Made by a program: the position numbers and the translations under genes. Shown here piece by piece: positions 24 to 31,120 of a stretch of DNA of 50,793 nt (within the stretch, counting starts at the first letter, position 1; the number at the start of each line of letters is the position of its first letter). The notes below the pieces were generated by a model. It was not told where the DNA came from. It did no database searches and saw only the letters and a program-made list of their open reading frames with translations. Source of the stretch: Candidatus Gastranaerophilales bacterium. GTDB lineage: Bacteria > Cyanobacteriota > Vampirovibrionia > Gastranaerophilales > Gastranaerophilaceae. The stretch is from assembly GCA_944322955.1 (NCBI GenBank), contig CALUQQ010000055.1:1-50793 (forward strand). The letters run 5' to 3'.

Positions 24-141
24 TTTACTAAACCGACAGTTACCTCTTAGTGCCTTAGTATCATAGTATCTTAATAACTTCTTCCAGAAAACACCCCCAA
101 AAATCGCACTACGAGCGGTTAAAAGGGTCGCCCCCCCCCGA
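24..141 (-). repeat. Copy A of a dispersed intergenic cassette (five 8-nt units at 41-80, conserved box 109-141 including the G9 tract)
   Basis: Aligns by eye with 29686-29803 (copy B). The box ctacgagcggttaaaagggtcgcccccccccga is identical in both. Partial copies at 40623-40672 and 44019-44074. Confidence 0.8.
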
Positions 142-166
142 CGTTACTAAATTTGTTGTTTTTCAT
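119..166 (-). CDS. Short ORF MKNNKFSNVGGGRPF* containing a G9 tract; with G10 the frame stays open to the left window edge
   Basis: AAGGAG (181-176) lies 9 nt before the ATG at 166. Promoter TTGCAA(230-225)-17-TGcTAAAAT(207-202). TAA at 121-119 with 9 G. Confidence 0.4.
   Translation of the reverse strand: MKNNKFSNVGGGRPF
131..139 (-). repeat. Homopolymer G9 (C9 on + strand)
   Basis: Counted directly; flanked by TC on the minus strand (TCG9), as at 11836-11844 and 29793-29801. Confidence 0.95.
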
Positions 167-11477: not shown

Positions 11478-11855
11478 TTACCTGCGTTTACCACCCTCAA
11501 ACACATCGTACATTACGTTCGCGCTCAAATGCTCCTTACTCGTTCCGCCCGACGGCTCATCATCTTTATAAGCAGGGATTACCTTCCCGCTTTTCAATAA
11601 ATAAAACGGAAATACGTCTTTCCACAATTCACTCTTGCCTGAATTCCCGTTTACATCTACATATATCTTAAAGCCTTTTCTGTCATTCTCATCTTCTGCA
11701 TCTGACAATTCATCTATTTTTTCATAATCTGTTCCTGTTATCGGCAATGTCACGCATACCACCATAGTTATTGCAACCAAAGCAACCACCAGTTCACCTA
11801 GCGTGAAACCCAGTCTATTTGGGCTTAAAGAGCTACCCCCCCCCGATTTGTACAA
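11478..11855 (-). CDS. Prepilin-type N-terminal cleavage/methylation protein, interrupted at both ends (G9 tract at the 5' end, frameshift at the 3' end)
   Basis: ...NRLG/FTLGELVVALVAITM motif and DVNGNSGKS motif shared with the other two pilins. The in-frame start is an SD-less TTG. See findings. Confidence 0.7.
   Translation of the reverse strand: MYKSGGGSSLSPNRLGFTLGELVVALVAITMVVCVTLPITGTDYEKIDELSDAEDENDRKGFKIYVDVNGNSGKSELWKDVFPFYLLKSGKVIPAYKDDEPSGGTSKEHLSANVMYDVFEGGKRR
11836..11844 (-). repeat. Homopolymer G9 inside the prepilin leader
   Basis: Counted directly. Confidence 0.95.
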
Positions 11856-11893
11856 AAATTTTCAAATACTTTCATTTCAACTCCTTTTACTAC

Positions 11894-24918: not shown

Positions 24919-26064
24919 ATGAAAAGAACATTCAAAGGGTTATTATCGTTAATTGCCGCTGCTTTAACAATTACGGCAGCGAACGCATTTCCGGATGTAG
25001 CAGACGAATACTGGGCAGCAGCGCAAATTAAAGAACTGTCCGAACAGGGTGTAATCGTAGGTTATCCTGACGGGACATTCAAACCTGACGACAATGTAAC
25101 ACGTGCGGAATTTGCGTCAATGGCGATAAAGGCACTCGGTCAACAAAATACAAAAGTAGTGCAGCCGGTCAGTTTTTCAGACATAACTACGGAATACTGG
25201 GCTTATGATGCAATACAAAAGGCAATATATTTTGACCTTGTATCAGTGCCAAAAGAAGGCGACCTTTTTAGACCCGATGACAGTGTTTCAAGAGCCGAAT
25301 CTTTGTCAGTAGCCGTAAATGCACTGACAACAGAACAAATTAGCGAACAAAAAGCAAAAGAAGTTCTTGAAAAAATGTATATAGACACACACACAATTCC
25401 GGAATGGTTTTTAATACCTGCAGGAAAGGCCGAAATTTTAGGCATGATGGTAATTATGCCAAGTGCCGATAAGGCGAAAGTCGAAGCCGAAAGACCTGCA
25501 ACACGTGCGGAAGTTGCCGCAATATTATTCAAAATGATGGAGCAGGCTAAATTAAATCCTAATGCAAAACTAGCAGAAGCAATGCGAAAGAAAACCGGTG
25601 ACGGCTTTGTTATTGAGAATGCGACAGTTCAAGGAAGCATCGGTACAATTCCGGCCGGTTCAATTGTTCCGGTTGAATTAACCAAATACATAAGTTCTCA
25701 AACGTCTGAACCGGGCGATTTGTTCGCTGGTGTTGCTGCTCAAAATTACGTAACAAAAGAAAAATTTATACTTGTAAATAAAGGGGCGACCCTTAAAGGT
25801 CAATTGATTGACGTCAGACCAGGAAGATGGTTTGTAAGAAACGGCGTACTGGTGCTGGACAATTCACTCATAACAACAAATAACGACCAGACAACAAATT
25901 TTAGCGCAGTCGCGAATATTAAAAAAGACCGCAATTGGTTTATGAAGTTTGTAAGATTCTGTTTCAAAGGCGAAAAACTTGAAGTTCCGGCACAAGGGAC
26001 AGTTGACCTGAAACTTTTAAAACCTGTTCAGGTAGACTTAACCAATGGCTGGATACTTGAATAA
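24919..26064 (+). CDS. SLH-domain envelope protein with a VirB10/TrbI-like C-terminal region
   Basis: Signal peptide, then three SLH-like repeats (FPDV..YWA...G..GYPDGTFKPD..VTRAE). C-terminus IPAGSIVPVELTKYISSQTSEPGDLFAG...GATLKGQL. Confidence 0.75.
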   Translation: MKRTFKGLLSLIAAALTITAANAFPDVADEYWAAAQIKELSEQGVIVGYPDGTFKPDDNVTRAEFASMAIKALGQQNTKVVQPVSFSDITTEYWAYDAIQKAIYFDLVSVPKEGDLFRPDDSVSRAESLSVAVNALTTEQISEQKAKEVLEKMYIDTHTIPEWFLIPAGKAEILGMMVIMPSADKAKVEAERPATRAEVAAILFKMMEQAKLNPNAKLAEAMRKKTGDGFVIENATVQGSIGTIPAGSIVPVELTKYISSQTSEPGDLFAGVAAQNYVTKEKFILVNKGATLKGQLIDVRPGRWFVRNGVLVLDNSLITTNNDQTTNFSAVANIKKDRNWFMKFVRFCFKGEKLEVPAQGTVDLKLLKPVQVDLTNGWILE

Positions 26065-26070
26065 AATTTT

Positions 26071-26099
26071 TCAAACCCTCTTTCCGAAAGAGGGTTTGA
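26071..26099 (+). terminator. 13-bp perfect hairpin after the SLH gene
   Basis: TCAAACCCTCTTT-ccg-AAAGAGGGTTTGA; no clear U-tail. Confidence 0.55.
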
Positions 26100-26173
26100 A
26101 CTTTACAAGCCATAATTTAGGGGTAGAGTGTATCAAACAACATTAATCGTTCAAACTTATTTTTTCGGGATTA

Positions 26174-26263
26174 AATAATGTATACCCAAACCCGCTTAGT
26201 TAACATATCGCCGGTATGCAGCCAGCCATTTTAATAATGTATACCCAGACCCGCCTAGTTAAC
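26174..26263. repeat. Two 31-nt direct repeats (26174-26204, 26233-26263; 2 mismatches) separated by 28 nt
   Basis: aataatgtatacccaRacccgcYtagttaac read twice. Confidence 0.85.
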
Positions 26264-26288
26264 TCAAAAAAGCTTTATAGGCTCTTAT

Positions 26289-27017
26289 TTATCTTAAAAT
26301 CATGTCGTCATTAATTTCCCAATTATGTCGAATAATATAAGAAAAACAATAATAACCGCGCCCGCCGTCTGAACAATCAGCATCAACTTCGTCATTAGAT
26401 TTGTCCGAACCTGCCGGCAAAAGATTTCTGTTATTAAACACAAACACAAAAATATCTCGTCCGATAACATTCGGGCCGGAATCACCATTTACATCAACAT
26501 GCATAACAAGCCCGGCTTTATCCATTTCAACTCCGAAATTATCTTCAATATCCTGCGCACTGGCACCGTCCATATTAACATAAACATTATCAAGCGTTTG
26601 AAAAACAATTATATTACCGCCAATTCCTTTAGTGCCTTCATCCCAAATCGCAGTCTGACCGTTCAATTGTTTAGTGACGCCTTCCTTATGCCAGCAGCCC
26701 GGAGTGTCATCCAGACAGTCTTTTTGTATACGTAAATTAGGTTTCAAATAATAATTATACCAATTTTTCATACTTTCATTATTACCGTCCTCAAAATCAA
26801 CGTATGAATAACCCAAATTATCTGCTACGGTTTTTTGAATAGCCTGCTGCAAAACCGAATAAGTTTTTTTCAATTTTGTAATTGTTACAACGCGCTTGTA
26901 ATCCTTAATCAATGTCGGAATAGTCATTGCGGCAACAATTCCGATAACACCAAGTGTTATCAAAACTTCCGCAAGAGTAAATGCCGTATGAAATTTATTA
27001 ACACAAAATCTGGACAT
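26289..27017 (-). CDS. Prepilin-type N-terminal cleavage/methylation protein
   Basis: MSRFCVNKFHTA/FTLAEVLITLGVIGIVAAMTIPTL and DVNGDSGPN motif. I prefer the ATG at 27017 over the TTG at 27047. Confidence 0.8.
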   Translation of the reverse strand: MSRFCVNKFHTAFTLAEVLITLGVIGIVAAMTIPTLIKDYKRVVTITKLKKTYSVLQQAIQKTVADNLGYSYVDFEDGNNESMKNWYNYYLKPNLRIQKDCLDDTPGCWHKEGVTKQLNGQTAIWDEGTKGIGGNIIVFQTLDNVYVNMDGASAQDIEDNFGVEMDKAGLVMHVDVNGDSGPNVIGRDIFVFVFNNRNLLPAGSDKSNDEVDADCSDGGRGYYCFSYIIRHNWEINDDMILR

Positions 27018-27414
27018 GAACTGTTCTGGTCCTCGCTTTATTATCAAAATCTACCAACACGATTTGCTGCCACTGCCCTAATTGCAAAGCTCCTTCCAAT
27101 AGAGGCACCATTGTAGAATTACCTACAATTGAAGCTCTGATATGAGAATAACCGTTTCCATCATGCCACATCTCATCATGATGATATTCTTTATTAACCG
27201 GCACAATTTTATCCAAAATTTCCGGCAAATCTTTTAACAAACCAGGTTCATACTCAATATTTGTAATTGAAACAGTGCTGCCGGCGACATACACATATAC
27301 AACCGCATCTTTCAATGAATGCCTGTATACAAGATTTTTCACCTCGTTAGTAACATCGATAATATCAGTATTACCTTTAGTATGTACTGTAAATTTTTCA
27401 CAAATTATTGTCAT
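26998..27414 (-). CDS. yjbQ: YjbQ/UPF0047 family protein (secondary thiamine-phosphate synthase-like)
   Basis: 138 aa with the family-typical ...YHHDEMWHDGNGYSHIRASIVG... block. Confidence 0.8.
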   Translation of the reverse strand: MTIICEKFTVHTKGNTDIIDVTNEVKNLVYRHSLKDAVVYVYVAGSTVSITNIEYEPGLLKDLPEILDKIVPVNKEYHHDEMWHDGNGYSHIRASIVGNSTMVPLLEGALQLGQWQQIVLVDFDNKARTRTVHVQILC

Positions 27415-28724
27415 AAACTAAATCTAATGTCCCCGCGTTTTACGATTTTTCGTCCTTTAGAATATGTTGAATACGGCATGTATTTGTTAACAATTGCTCT
27501 GTAATCCTCGCCGTCATCAAGCTTAAACACATTGAAATCAGCATCTTTGCCGACTTCTATGGAACCTGTGACATGATCAAGCCTTAAAATTTTTGCAGGA
27601 TAAATCGTCAAATATTTCAAAAGTTCAATAACATCAAGCTGATTTTCACTGTTGCATTCAACTGCAAGTTTTAAAAGGCTGTAATCTTTTTCAAGCTTGA
27701 AACTTTGAGAAGAGAACCCGAAATTTTTCCCGAAATATTTCAAAACAGTTGAAAAATCAAGTTTTTTATTGCAGATTTCCTCGCTGTATCTGGGCTGATA
27801 AACAAATTTAACGCCTGTTTCAGCAAGTTCTTCAAGCTGGCTGTCATTTACGTAATTCGCATTGACAGCAATAACCTTTTTAGTTAAAACTTTCAAATCA
27901 TCAAGATATTTAACAGGATCTTCCATACGCTTGTACGGTGTAATTTTTCTAAATCCCATAAATTTATGCAATAAATCAATATCGGAAAATCCGTGCTCCA
28001 GCCATTCCATTTCGTCCTGAGCTTCAGCAAAACGTGTCATCAAAAGCATGTTATGCTTGCGGCAGTATTTGGAAAACAATTCCCATAATTTTTTATGCAC
28101 ACCCGGAATTGAATGAAGCATAATTCCGATGTGGGTATTTTCGCCTTTATGGAATACGTAATTTTCAACCTTATCTCGCAAAGCCTTGAATTTTTTCTTA
28201 CTTTTGTCGGAGCTGTCCGCAAAAACCTCAAAAAACATATAGTTTTTAATAGGAGTTTTATTTATAATTTCAAAATACTTATCCTCTTTTGAAACCTGAG
28301 CAATACATGTAGTGCCGGCTTTAACGGAAGCTGCCAGACCGTCTTTAAAAGATTGAATTTTTTCATACCTGTCTAAAACAAAATAATCGCTCAGAATATT
28401 TGCCCATTTTAAGCTGTAATTATCAGGTTTTACGCCAGCAAAGGTATATTTTTTTGCAATTGTCTGAAAGAATTTTTTCAAATTATTTTTAACGCCGCAG
28501 GGCTTTATTTTTCCGATATCCGTATACTGATACTGGGTGAACATGTCGATAAATCCCGGCGTAACGACTGAATTTCCGAGATCTTTGACAAATTTTTCTT
28601 CAAATTTTGAAGTTTCATCATTCGGAATAATTTCAACAAACTTGCCTTCATCAACTACCAGCGCCATATTTTCAAGCACATCGCCCGTTGAAGTTAATAT
28701 CCATCTTGATTTGTAGCACTTCAT
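27411..28724 (-). CDS. Amidohydrolase-fold protein lacking the N-terminal HxH metal motif
   Basis: ...VVTPGFIDMFTQ... where PGFIDxHxH is expected; C-terminal GSIEVGKDADF. Confidence 0.65.
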   Translation of the reverse strand: MKCYKSRWILTSTGDVLENMALVVDEGKFVEIIPNDETSKFEEKFVKDLGNSVVTPGFIDMFTQYQYTDIGKIKPCGVKNNLKKFFQTIAKKYTFAGVKPDNYSLKWANILSDYFVLDRYEKIQSFKDGLAASVKAGTTCIAQVSKEDKYFEIINKTPIKNYMFFEVFADSSDKSKKKFKALRDKVENYVFHKGENTHIGIMLHSIPGVHKKLWELFSKYCRKHNMLLMTRFAEAQDEMEWLEHGFSDIDLLHKFMGFRKITPYKRMEDPVKYLDDLKVLTKKVIAVNANYVNDSQLEELAETGVKFVYQPRYSEEICNKKLDFSTVLKYFGKNFGFSSQSFKLEKDYSLLKLAVECNSENQLDVIELLKYLTIYPAKILRLDHVTGSIEVGKDADFNVFKLDDGEDYRAIVNKYMPYSTYSKGRKIVKRGDIRFSL

Positions 28725-28777
28725 GTTACACCCCTTGATTTTAAGGATAACAAATTTTCACTAAAAAAGCAAGTACA

Positions 28778-29521
28778 TTATAATCTTGATCTGCCGTAAA
28801 GCCATGTAATATAATAACATTTCCCTGAAGGGCACCAGCGCTCTTTTATCGTGATATCATGATTCATGCTTGGTTTTACCATATCCGGCACAGAATCCGA
28901 ATACGGTGACGAATTGTTTGCTGACATTGCAAACCCGAATCTGTCTTTTCCGAGTTGATTCGGACCTTTAAAACCGTTAGTATCGACTAAAAATACCGGT
29001 TCATTACTTGAATACATCTTCCAATTGCGGCCTTGAGCGTCAATAAACGAATATTCCCCCTGACATACGATTGTACCTTTAAAATTTTCGTCAACATGAG
29101 TAATATATGCCTGCTCAGCGTCTTTGCATTTCCAGCAGATGTCACCGTATTCTCTATCAAAACACGTTTTGGTTGCTTTAAAATATTTTGCCAGGATTTT
29201 AAAGTTTTCAGCATAATTAGGGGAATAACCAGGCTTTGGATTACCTTCTTCATCATTTATAAAAACAATTTTTTGCAAAGAAGTTCCGTCGGCCAACAGC
29301 ATCTTGAATGCCTGATTTACGTCGCTGAATGCTGCTTTATAGGCGTTTTTATAGACAAAATCCTGCATATTTGATATCAAAGTCGGAATTGTCATGGCTG
29401 CCACAACACCGATTATGCCAAGAGTAATTAAGACTTCGGCAAGAGTAAAAGCTGCTTTTTTTGAAGTAAATAAGGTAGTAGGGGAATAATGGAATAAGTG
29501 TTTTCTGTGTGCATCGCACAA
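28778..29521 (-). CDS. Prepilin-type N-terminal cleavage/methylation protein
   Basis: ...TSKKAA/FTLAEVLITLGIIGVVAAMTIPTL and DTNGFKGPN motif. The only in-frame start is the TTG at 29521, 8 nt after GAGGGG. Confidence 0.75.
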   Translation of the reverse strand: MCDAHRKHLFHYSPTTLFTSKKAAFTLAEVLITLGIIGVVAAMTIPTLISNMQDFVYKNAYKAAFSDVNQAFKMLLADGTSLQKIVFINDEEGNPKPGYSPNYAENFKILAKYFKATKTCFDREYGDICWKCKDAEQAYITHVDENFKGTIVCQGEYSFIDAQGRNWKMYSSNEPVFLVDTNGFKGPNQLGKDRFGFAMSANNSSPYSDSVPDMVKPSMNHDITIKERWCPSGKCYYITWLYGRSRL

Positions 29522-29602
29522 GGGGCTTACCCCTCACCTTGAGGGCGGGGGTTGAATTTCAACACCAGCTTGCGAGTGTTTGAAATTCGGGGACGGGGTC
29601 GC
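29521..29602. repeat. REP/MITE-like double-hairpin module (copy 1)
   Basis: GAATTTCAACAC-10 nt-GTGTTTGAAATTC (29554-29588) flanked by G/C-rich short hairpins. Homologous to 40544-40609 in the opposite orientation relative to the neighbouring repeat. Confidence 0.7.
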
Positions 29603-29685
29603 ATTTTTTGAGATCCTTCGGCTATCGCCTCAGGATGACAAGACAAATTCCTCCAATGCCCAGTGCGTTGTCCCGACTTTTGCAG

Positions 29686-29803
29686 TTTACTAACCCGACT
29701 GTTACTTCTTAGTGCCTTAGTGCCATAGTATCTTAGTATCTTTTTCCAATAGATACCTTCGAAACTTCCTCTACGAGCGGTTAAAAGGGTCGCCCCCCCC
29801 CGA
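29686..29803 (-). repeat. Copy B of the dispersed cassette (8-nt units 29703-29742; conserved box 29771-29803 with G9 at 29793-29801)
   Basis: Aligned by eye with 24-141. Confidence 0.8.
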
Positions 29804-29828
29804 GATCCATACTAATCATATCTGCCAT
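29781..29828 (-). CDS. Short ORF MADMISMDLGGGRPF* containing a G9 tract; G10 gives a 102-codon frame ending 5 nt before the pilin TTG
   Basis: AGGAGG (29840-29835) lies 6 nt before the ATG at 29828, which starts 2 nt after the obg stop. Internal promoter at 29847-29874. Confidence 0.4.
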   Translation of the reverse strand: MADMISMDLGGGRPF

Positions 29829-29830
29829 TT

Positions 29831-31120
29831 CTACCCTCCTGAATACATTTTATCATCAAAATATTCCATTTCAAGGTGACCTATGACGATTGTGTCGCCG
29901 TCTTTTACACCTTGTTTTTTCAGCTCCTCAAATACACCCATGCCGGTAAGAATATTTTGCAGCCTAATAATCTGTTCGGTATTTCTTGCATCCGTAACCG
30001 CCGCGAGCCGTCTTATTTTGCCGCCGTCCACAATGTATGTGTCTTTTGCAGTTTTATAAATTTCAAAAGCACTATCGTCATTATTATAAGCAGCAAAATC
30101 TTCTTCCACAACAATATCTGATACGTGATGCTCAATCTCATCCACTTTAACCGCCATAAAATCAAGCAGTTTATCAAGATTTTCGCCTGTTACGGCAGAA
30201 ATAAGGAAAACGTCCTTTGCGGCTTTTTTAAACTCAGCCGACAATTCATCCTGTATTGCTTTATCAACCGCGTCAATTTTATTCAAAACAACAATTTGAT
30301 ATAGATTAGCAAGCTTTTCGGAATGTTTTTCAAGCTCTGAAATAATTATTTCATAATTTCTAAAAGGGTTGTCTGCCGTAATATCAACAAGATGGACAAG
30401 AAAACGGCAGCGTTCAATATGACGCAAAAATTCATGCCCCAGCCCGACACCTTCAGACGCACCTTCAATCAAACCCGGAATATCTGCAACCACATAACCG
30501 TCACCCGAGCGTTTTTTCACCACGCCCAGATTAGGAATTAATGTAGTGAAAGGATAATCGGCGATTTTGGGTTTGGCGGAAGAAATTCTGCTTATAAGTG
30601 TTGATTTTCCTGCATTCGGCATACCTAAAAGCCCGACATCCGCAATTAATTTCAATTCGAGCTCAAGTTCGCGTTCAATGCCCGGTTCTCCCGGTTCACA
30701 AAACTGCGGGGCACGTTTTTGAGCGGTTGCGAATCTTGCATTTCCCCTGCCGCCTCTGCCGCCTTTGGCAACAAGAACTTTTTGTTCGTGTTCTGTTAAA
30801 TCAGCAATGGCCTTACCGGTTTTCAAATCTCTGACAACCGTTCCCACAGGAACTTTTATCACTAAATCTTTAGCACATTTGCCATGCATATTTTTAATAC
30901 TGCCGTTTTCGCCGTTTTCTGCTTTAAATACAGATTTATATTTAAAATCCATCAACGTTGACATATTTTCGTCCGCAATCAAATAGACATCACCGCCGGA
31001 ACCGCCGTCCCCGCCTGCCGGGCCGCCTTTATCTACATATTTTTCGCGACGCCAGGCAACCATACCGTTTCCGCCTCGTCCTGAAATAATTTTTATTCCG
31101 GTTTTGTCTAAAAATTGCAT
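29831..31120 (-). CDS. obg: GTPase Obg/CgtA
   Basis: MQFLDKTGIKIISGRGGNG N-terminus, GMPNAGKST, DIPGLIEGA, NKID. Confidence 0.96.
   Translation of the reverse strand: MQFLDKTGIKIISGRGGNGMVAWRREKYVDKGGPAGGDGGSGGDVYLIADENMSTLMDFKYKSVFKAENGENGSIKNMHGKCAKDLVIKVPVGTVVRDLKTGKAIADLTEHEQKVLVAKGGRGGRGNARFATAQKRAPQFCEPGEPGIERELELELKLIADVGLLGMPNAGKSTLISRISSAKPKIADYPFTTLIPNLGVVKKRSGDGYVVADIPGLIEGASEGVGLGHEFLRHIERCRFLVHLVDITADNPFRNYEIIISELEKHSEKLANLYQIVVLNKIDAVDKAIQDELSAEFKKAAKDVFLISAVTGENLDKLLDFMAVKVDEIEHHVSDIVVEEDFAAYNNDDSAFEIYKTAKDTYIVDGGKIRRLAAVTDARNTEQIIRLQNILTGMGVFEELKKQGVKDGDTIVIGHLEMEYFDDKMYSGG
29847..29874 (-). promoter_or_regulatory. Promoter TTGAAA-16-TAAAAT embedded in the obg 3' end
   Basis: Read directly from the minus strand. 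Confidence 0.5.

Follow-up and report, generated by a model that had tools for sequence, protein, structure and literature searches.

The locus downstream of obg

In the 50,793-nucleotide (nt) stretch of DNA analysed here, hereafter the window, in which all positions are counted, a run of nine G residues (G9) lies several codons past an ATG that directly follows the obg gene, and is itself followed by a gene for a prepilin-type protein. The window contains two further copies of this arrangement, and we denote them as copies A and B, the one after obg as copy C, and a locus on contig L024 as copy D. On balance, and with modest confidence, we favour the reading that the tract of copy C belongs to a family of poly-G contingency cassettes situated at the 5' ends of prepilin-type genes and providing translational phase variation. 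All features of copy C are on the minus strand (Table 1).

Table 1. Features of copy C, its neighbourhood and the two other cassettes of the window
Feature	Position	Strand	Remarks
obg	29831-31120	-	stop at 29833-29831; 3' end ...TCA GGA GGG TAG
Promoter-like TTGAAA-16-TAAAAT, preceded by TG	29847-29874	-	inside the last obg codons; 10 of 12 matches
Shine-Dalgarno (SD) sequence AGGAGG	29835-29840	-	6 nt before the ATG; 3' end 1 nt short of the obg stop
ATG and five codons (MADMIS)	29811-29828	-	ATG at 29828-29826, 2 nt past the obg stop; shared with contig L009
15-codon open reading frame (ORF) in the present G9 frame, MADMISMDLGGGRPF then TAA	29781-29828	-	stop at 29783-29781; presumed off state
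G9 tract, candidate hypermutable element	29793-29801	-	27 nt after the ATG
Conserved module CGACCCTTTTAACCGCTCGTAG	29771-29792	-	carries the stops of both non-productive frames: TAA (G9) and TAG (G8/G11)
Octamer-periodic core AAGATACT AAGATACT ATGGCACT AAGGCACT AAGAAGTAAC	29701-29742	-	G10 frame reads KILRYYGTKALRSN
Leader ORF, open only with 10 G	29527-29828	-	100 sense codons; TAA at 29529-29527, 5 nt before the pilin TTG
Hairpin repeat module GTCATCCTGAGGCGATAGCCGAAGGATCTC, resembling a miniature inverted-repeat transposable element (MITE)	29610-29639	-	-12.4 kcal/mol
Two hairpins	29505-29551	-	GC-rich one buries SD-like GAGGGG, second holds the TTG start; -19.7 kcal/mol, z = -2.8
C-rich, G-poor stretch, candidate Rho-loading region	29454-29511	-	start of the pilin ORF
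Prepilin-type gene, 247 aa	28778-29521	-	TTG start at 29521; putative cleavage/methylation site ...KKAA/FTLAEVLITLG
Amidohydrolase gene	27411-28724	-	co-directional, downstream
YjbQ/UPF0047 gene	26998-27414	-	co-directional, downstream
Second pilin-like gene	26289-27047	-	likely start MSRFCVNKFHTA/FTLAEV overlaps the 3' end of the YjbQ-family gene
Terminator-like hairpin	26100-26070	-	after the second pilin-like gene
Copy A	24-166	-	ATG 166-164, G9 139-131; cut by the window edge
Copy B	11478-11875	-	SD, ATG 11875, G9 11844-11836; G/FTLGE 28 nt past the tract

The positions given in a preliminary description of the locus hold: the distance of the ATG from the obg stop, the early stop of the G9 frame, the promoter-like sequence within the last obg codons (as a consensus match), and the end of the G10 frame just before the pilin TTG. 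Two details need amendment, as AGGAGG had been described as overlapping the obg stop, while it ends one base before it, and the G10 frame, given as 102 codons, has 100 sense codons (101 with the stop). The three Gly codons of MADMISMDLGGGRPF are the G9 run (29801-29793) itself. With ten G residues the leader ORF ends in a frame different from that of the pilin gene; a stop-free frame across the 271-nt leader, in any of the three frames, was obtained in 105 of 5000 shuffles. The sequence TTGAAA-16-TAAAAT is the top promoter-like match on the minus strand within 26000-30100, a region with 19 such sites against 14.3 +/- 4.2 in shuffles, i.e. with no enrichment, and it counts as a consensus match only.

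The association with a prepilin-type gene, also proposed in the preliminary description, is confirmed, and the cassette family is real. The 247-aa product passes both PF07963 (N_methyl; 23.3, cut-off 21.2) and TIGR02532 (19.1, cut-off 16.3) at residues 20-44, KKAA/FTLAEVLITLGIIGVVAAM, with Ala instead of the usual Gly at position -1 of the prepilin site. It has 7526 homologues; those with names are pseudopilins, GspH-family proteins and prepilin-type N-terminal cleavage/methylation proteins, and one of the named ones comes from Candidatus Gastranaerophilales. By its cleavage/methylation motif and hydrophobic helix the product is a prepilin-type protein, whose processing and fibre assembly are predicted.

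Three cassettes in the window

Runs of eight or more G produced six overlapping matches in the window, corresponding to three tracts, compared to 0.23 matches in shuffles; none of the 100 shuffles reached six. All three tracts in these 50.8 kb are G9 on the minus strand, and each is preceded by an SD sequence and an ATG with 9-10 codons and followed by a prepilin-type gene. The tract takes the form TC-G9 in all three copies and is continued by a related module, CGACCCTTTTAACCGCTCGTAG in copies A and C and TAGCTCTTTAAGCC in copy B. The former module is identical in copy A (109-130) and near-identical in L024, L026 and L027. In a scan of the window and contigs L001, L009, L010 and L020-L025, all G or C runs of at least 7 nt were inside such cassettes, always with G on the coding strand.

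The similarity of copies A and C extends beyond the module: the 42-nt core at 29701-29742 is found again at 39-80 (chance expectation, 0 matches), and the two copies differ without indels across the shared stretch, as the preliminary description had noted in stating that length is kept. The early stop in the G9 frame is also present in copy A, and copy D likewise has a stop just past the tract, in the frame of the upstream ATG and at a distance of 17 codons from it. Copies A and C have repeat modules amounting to one to several hundred bases between the tract and the FTLAE codons. In copy B the prepilin site follows the tract after 28 nt; thus, the tract sits within an ordinary prepilin leader, and the in-frame lengths are G7 and G10. 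A 1-nt difference (CGCAGG in the window, CGTGAGG in L030) truncates pilin B of the window at 11478; in L030 the frame reaches ...KEPIKIF.

The cassette family outside the window

Related contigs show that we deal with a cassette family of a Melainabacteria/Gastranaerophilales-like gut bacterium. In every copy the G-run is at a fixed distance from the SD-ATG, 27 nt in four of them. The start codon is joined to the pilin by fusion at one tract length in three in A (as continued in L010), B, D and L020-L023, and the pilin frame from the tract to FTLAE has no stops in A (L010), D and L020-L023, while the other frames have 5-16. In L010, which was reached by way of a neighbouring FtsJ-like gene and covers the part of copy A beyond the window edge, the tract is G8A, and the +1 frame is stop-free for about 75 codons into ...KRVAFTLAEV, with 5 and 6 stops in the other two frames. 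Copy D belongs to the same species and has G9. Three loci from related species (L020/L021, L022, L023) have G11-G12, and their SD-ATG is in or out of frame depending on the tract. Contigs L020 and L021 represent one locus in two strains with a 1-nt difference at the tract border: L020 is in frame (on), with a 327-aa product, and L021 is out of frame (off).

The on-frame peptide used as a query retrieved products starting with M..KEF.N[LV]GGGATLL, and the underlying DNA (L026, L027) has G10, the ATG in frame and the same flanks as copies A and C. The leader ORF of L027 has 86 codons, and its TAG stop overlaps with the pilin GTG (TAGTG); in L026 the leader ORF ends 33 nt before the pilin ORF call. 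Contig L025 has no G-run; its SD and ATG immediately precede GCGAC... and so open the on frame. These comparisons support the G10 frame as the presumed productive frame of the family.

Leaders longer than 30 aa occur in 38 of 115 pilin homologues. Many of the 115 contain ...RGGG[ANDS]... near the N-terminus, including short, ordinary-looking leaders such as MKLSNKLEKRGGGNCLKLNLSGFQLSPKKAFTLAEV, and it seems that a G-run within a prepilin leader was the ancestral design, the long leaders being later expansions. Exact-pattern scans for the cassette in the genome contig collection and (first scan) the metagenome contig collection gave no match, so that this species is absent from those collections, nor was the cassette matched in the phage and plasmid collections.

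Tract-length variation at copy B

For copy B we compared the window with ten further assemblies of the same species (L030-L039). The tract is G9 in four assemblies (the window, L032, L035, L036), G8 in four (L031, L033, L038, L039) and G7, with the ATG in frame, in one (L037), whereas in two (L030, L034) the whole cassette front is deleted. Unlike lengths are found on one single-nucleotide-polymorphism haplotype; thus, the length changes are recurrent. In the deletion alleles, the cassette front and the pilin N-terminus have been lost between the short direct repeats TATAATGTAG and TATATGTAGATG.

Variation in copy A (109-139 on the minus strand, compared with L010-L012 and L019) is clustered at the tract and the next six bases, with G8A, CGCCCC and CGCCCTTTTT as variants, and flanks of nearly 200 bases or more per assembly are identical. 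This could reflect either local mutagenesis at the tract or sequencing errors beside the G-run.

A fixed G9 could also be read by programmed recoding, with a -1 frameshift on G GGG GGG, or one G added by RNA polymerase, yielding a constant low level of the on-frame product. The on frame is indeed the -1 frame relative to the ATG in copies A, B, C and D (in copy C, the frame of GCG ACC CTT), exactly nine positions are kept in A, C and D, and a 9-nt homopolymer has the length of the RNA-DNA hybrid. We nevertheless regard this explanation as improbable, given that in-frame G10 and G7 alleles exist at the DNA level, that related species have G11-G12, that interrupted tracts are common at copy C, and that no conserved downstream stimulatory structure is seen (no covariation; z = -0.26 for the whole-leader fold).

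Copy C in other assemblies: a probable captured start

An identical Obg protein is encoded on 11 contigs, nine of which were read; L001-L008 carry copy C and L009 does not, so that copy C could be compared in nine assemblies, including the window. The window and L001 have G9, L002-L008 have GGGAGGGGG, and the tract comprises nine positions in all nine. One 8-nt unit, GCACTAAG, present in the window and all paralogues, is absent from each of L001-L008. A duplication in the window was considered and rejected, as comparison with the paralogues identifies the state of the window as the consensus and that of the other strains as a loss of the unit. Two of these eight contigs have an additional deletion of 68 nt. 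As a consequence of the 8-nt and 68-nt deletions, no tract length in those strains brings the ORF near the pilin start, the closest possible end in L001-L008 being 157 nt away. The pilin bodies of the copy C strains differ by 2-4 synonymous and 2-3 non-synonymous substitutions, too few for an estimate of the ratio of non-synonymous to synonymous rates.

Contig L009 is short and has about threefold coverage. The end of obg, the SD, the ATG and the first six codons are the same there as in the window, and then a different ORF follows: identity to the window ends at 29811, and L009:1426-1513 continues with MADMISALIENQDDYKVNMWISLDKDLF, the ORF reading MADMISALIENQDDYKV.... No trace of this downstream gene was found in the window. 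The layout of L009 could be either the ancestral arrangement or a misjoin. On the copy C side, likeness to the other cassettes (AATCTC and the G-run) begins about 6 nt before the tract. The obg tail with the TAAAAT box and GGAGG is limited to a lineage with Obg ending in YFDDKMYSGG (429 aa), while in relatives the protein ends in YWEDQMYS (427 aa). In this tail (29831-29880, minus strand) a Gln-to-Lys codon change creates the TAAAAT box, and two extra Gly codons constitute the SD of the next gene.

Since L009 shares the promoter, SD and ATG ahead of a different gene, and since the obg tail is lineage-specific, we conclude that the promoter, the SD, the ATG and six codons are presumably not cassette parts, being rather the captured 5' end of a resident gene, and that TTGAAA-16-TAAAAT is probably the promoter of that resident gene downstream of obg. 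The cassette, we also conclude from the comparison, would have joined the resident gene at approximately 29810 (left junction), keeping the 27-nt spacing between the ATG and the tract that is observed in copies A, E and F. The value of the copy C locus would lie mainly in illustrating how a switch comes under a foreign start codon and subsequently disappears. Given that in sister strains the tract is interrupted and the leader ORF broken, with the pilin nevertheless kept, the chances that the copy C switch is still functional in the window strain appear about even.

The leader: protein, repeat or structured RNA

When six paralogues were aligned over 102 nt, they showed a single 1-nt indel, and the variable columns were distributed over the three codon positions as 17/17/17. 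The ratio of non-synonymous to synonymous differences was about 3-4:1, as expected with no amino-acid constraint. The G10 frame stays open across the family, yet its sequence is apparently unconstrained as a protein. No Pfam or NCBIfam match was found for the leader peptide.

The preliminary description had suggested real coding for about the first 45 codons of this frame. A small protein of that size would be consistent with the open frame, the length conserved between copies, the recurrence of KLLRYY[DG]TKALR in predicted proteins and two synonymous changes in the L026 core. The substitution pattern described above and the lack of domain matches point the other way, as does the occurrence of the core outside ORFs. 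Moreover, the comparison of orthologous loci proposed earlier, once made, revealed frame-breaking indels inside the region, namely the 8-nt and 68-nt deletions in conspecific assemblies. The small protein is hence very improbable, and on these sequence comparisons close to refuted.

The octamer core occurs in non-coding DNA upstream of the promoter of a pilin-like gene (L028:1000-1140) and, downstream of a mur gene, within 95-nt tandem units (L029, minus strand, approximately 2050-2290). Units of GGCACTAA and GATACTAA form arrays in other gut and metagenome contigs. The leaders of L024-L027 contain modules related to GTCATCCTGAGGCGATAGCCGAAGGATCTC, as do many pilin homologues in their N-terminal extensions, and hairpin modules in general recur in the leaders of L022-L027. 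Other pieces of the leaders are hairpin repeats of the kind whose translation gives the junk peptides (CHPE..., VILNLFQDL...) of many predicted N-terminal extensions. Judging by this recurrence at unrelated non-coding sites, the leader modules are dispersed intergenic repeats, probably MITE-like.

The leader might also be a structured cis-regulatory RNA resembling a riboswitch, in which the G-run pairs with downstream C-runs. In the minimum-free-energy fold as well as in the centroid fold the G-run is paired with GACCCCGUCCCC, and the local hairpins are stable. However, the whole leader folds no more stably than shuffles (z = -0.26), none of 13 consensus pairs of the alignment fold is compensatory, and a 68-nt piece is dispensable in some strains. 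In the search against Rfam 15 only a tRNA elsewhere in the window reached the gathering score; all matches in 29350-29900 (E up to 10) were far below gathering, and none was relevant. We give such an RNA hardly any credence.

Two local elements at the pilin start deserve separate mention. The hairpin pair at 29505-29551 has an equivalent in copy A of L010 (-26.4 kcal/mol, z = -3.1), and its start-codon hairpin displays one compensatory change, TGTGC-GAT-GCACA in the window (29505-29522, minus strand) and GTGAGC-AAA-GCTCAC in L010 (3955-3970, minus strand). An "AHRKH" peptide is conserved in several leaders, and the nucleotide hairpin at the start codon may underlie it. The second element is the C-rich stretch at 29454-29511, a candidate Rho-loading region: the excess of C over G is +12 in the 64 nt ending 6 nt before the FTLAE codons, a measurement that overlaps most of this stretch and does not coincide with it exactly, and the 99th percentile for the window is +10. 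Similar stretches are present in cassettes A (+19), E (+13) and L025 (+10).

Two other interpretations of the 5' region were considered. A double-glycine leader of the bacteriocin type, suggested by M..GGG, was rejected, as most copies do not have the G-run in frame and we saw no peptidase-transporter context. Reiterative addition of G at initiation, of the pyrG type, was set aside, as about 45-50 nt separate the tract from the predicted -10 box upstream of it.

The proposed switch and its alternatives

The cassette anatomy, the relations within the family and between the frames, the length polymorphism of copy B and the G10 alleles at paralogous loci are observed directly. From these we propose the following scheme. 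Each cassette starts with an SD and an ATG; about 9-10 codons follow (in the related species of L020-L022, about 20), then 7-12 G residues and the module CGACCCTTTTAACC. Next comes either the prepilin cleavage site itself or a leader filled with short repeat modules. Replication slippage in the G-run would shift the frame. At two of three lengths the ribosome would halt 3-8 codons past the tract (off), and at the third, reading would continue in the "GGGATLL..." frame (on). At some loci the on frame is fused to the pilin, presumably giving a prepilin with a very long leader to be cut off by the peptidase. At others (copy C of the window, L026, L027) it ends at or near the GTG or TTG of the pilin gene, whose translation would rely on coupling.

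For copy C, G9 would be the off and G10 the on state. As the leader ORF ends 5 nt before a TTG held in a hairpin, coupling would be the only route left at this locus: the arriving ribosome would melt the hairpins, restart at the TTG and possibly shield the C-rich stretch from Rho. We infer that leader translation is needed to open the pilin start, and perhaps to block Rho loading, and that switching is reversible within a population.

In a more specific form, which is possible and rather doubtful, the leader is a translated spacer of up to about 145 codons, composed of in-frame repeat modules, whose only need is to stay open; the poly-G tract would gate the leader, and the hairpins and the Rho-type stretch would silence the pilin and the genes behind it. 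The same form of the hypothesis, held equally tentatively, has the leader either removed by prepilin peptidase or merely carrying ribosomes to a masked start. If true, it would mean that a phase switch operates via leader translation and polarity and not via the protein's own frame, and that repeat elements colonise a coding region tolerant of any sequence.

Several observations weigh against phase variation. At copy C itself, tract-length variation was not seen among the nine assemblies, seven of which have the tract interrupted. The copy C leader ORF is broken at every tract length in eight of the nine, with the pilin ORF intact, hence the pilin may not need the switch. No proteins starting with MADMISM.LGGGATLL are on record. 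Copy A varies by substitution only (five assemblies). Frameshifts affect several pilin bodies of the family (those of copy B in the window, copy A in L010, and L025), suggesting general decay. Finally, many loci came from ORF-based searches, which favour open frames, and an assembly consensus masks heterogeneity within a population.

The corresponding alternative is that copy C is only a relic, i.e. a G-run in a repeat-laden 5' region where no switching takes place, tract length is irrelevant, and the pilin is either translated from its own TTG or silent. It would agree with the constant length of 9 in copies A and C in 14 assemblies, the tolerated interruptions, the loss of the leader ORF in most strains that retain the pilin ORF, the lack of amino-acid constraint in the leader, the repeat core shared with non-coding DNA, and the frequent frameshifts in pilin bodies. 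Yet it leaves unexplained the recurrent length polymorphism of copy B on shared haplotypes, the existence of in-frame G10 and G7 alleles, the stop-free pilin frame against 5-16 stops in the other frames, and the constant position of the G-run relative to the SD-ATG in every copy; nor would one expect the TTG and its SD-like site to be buried in hairpins. We therefore consider a mere relic unlikely.

Relation to known systems

The Neisseria pilC1 and pilC2 genes undergo translational phase variation via a poly-G tract in the 5' coding region (Jonsson et al. 1991, summarised in PMC5320596). Both there and here, a G-run (about 9-13 in pilC) is situated a few codons past the start of a pilus-related gene, and interrupted variants, (G)9CAGG and GGGC(G)11, are known in pilC as well (PMC5320596). 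As in pilC, at the loci with a fused leader only every third length keeps the frame and the remaining ones terminate early; the cassette family also varies in tract length among strains. The differences are that here the switched gene is itself of the prepilin type, with the tract in the leader peptide, and the lineage is Melainabacteria; that the tract and the mature N-terminus are 100-400 nt of repeat modules apart in many copies; and that at copy C the on frame is not fused to the pilin, its stop preceding the pilin start by 5 nt, with no length variation documented at this copy.

Poly-G/C contingency loci are also present in Campylobacter jejuni, Haemophilus influenzae and Helicobacter pylori. 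Common features are homopolymers of at least 8 nt limited to genes for surface structures, several paralogous loci per genome, and frequent off alleles and pseudogenised copies, whereas the shared flanking module and the repeat-laden leaders distinguish the cassette described here.

Termination-reinitiation coupling to a structurally masked start and Rho-dependent polarity of an untranslated leader are general bacterial mechanisms. The stop 5 nt before the start in the window, the TAGTG overlap in L027, the hairpins over the SD-like site and the start, and the C-rich stretch all resemble such systems; in other members of the family, however, the leader is simply fused to the pilin. Programmed slippage or -1 frameshifting on homopolymers is known in Thermus dnaX, Shigella mxiE and insertion sequence (IS) elements, the known cases using A/T runs. 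Copy C shares with them a 9-nt homopolymer and a productive frame at -1, and differs in having a G-run and no evident stimulatory element; moreover, in-frame DNA alleles exist in the family.

The mechanism is of a known kind; the novelty lies in the lineage, in a cassette whose copies have a module in common, in leaders built from repeats, and in the history of capture and subsequent decay at copy C. The Melainabacteria/Gastranaerophilales are uncultured gut relatives of cyanobacteria. In the literature searched we found no report of repeat-mediated phase variation in Melainabacteria, only mentions that they encode type IV pili. If true, our reading would imply stochastic variation of the surface fibres in these commensals, as is seen in host-adapted pathogens, and the poly-G switch family would be a practical marker for strain-level and read-level metagenome studies. 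For annotation, the cassette accounts for the odd starts (TTG/GTG), the long junk-like N-terminal extensions and the split ORFs of these pilin genes.

Neighbouring genes and minor observations

The preliminary description had copy C at the head of a pilin operon. No terminator-like site was predicted on the minus strand from copy C up to 26100-26070, and as operon status follows only from the absence of predicted terminators in between, a single transcription unit reaching the second pilin-like gene is plausible. That gene (26289-27047) has neither a G-run nor a repeat leader; thus, the cassette is not on all pilin-type genes of the genome.

The Obg protein shares 80% identity with its counterpart in "Candidatus Melainabacteria bacterium 35_41". 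Near cassette D the same species has flagellar hook/rod and FliJ-like genes (L024:799-2969), and hence the organism is probably motile and of the Gastranaerophilales type.

Frameshifted or split pilin bodies are common. Copy A in L010 (3237-3900, minus strand) is one example; in L025 (10440-10800) the body is cut 28 codons after FTLAE, and in another metagenome-assembled genome pilin C is split into 160 and 106 aa (proteins P0148 and P0150). These cases could represent either widespread decay or consensus artefacts of mixed strains.

In several pilin homologues (P0010, P0026, P0028, P0048, P0057, P0064) the N-terminal motif is duplicated, ...AFTLAE-GATHV[DAG]...[KR]xxAFTLAEV. The DNA past the first motif copy in L022:1855-1945 contains the palindrome GCTACGCACGTAGAC, and the duplicated prepilin motif looks like a scar of insertion or recombination at the prepilin site.

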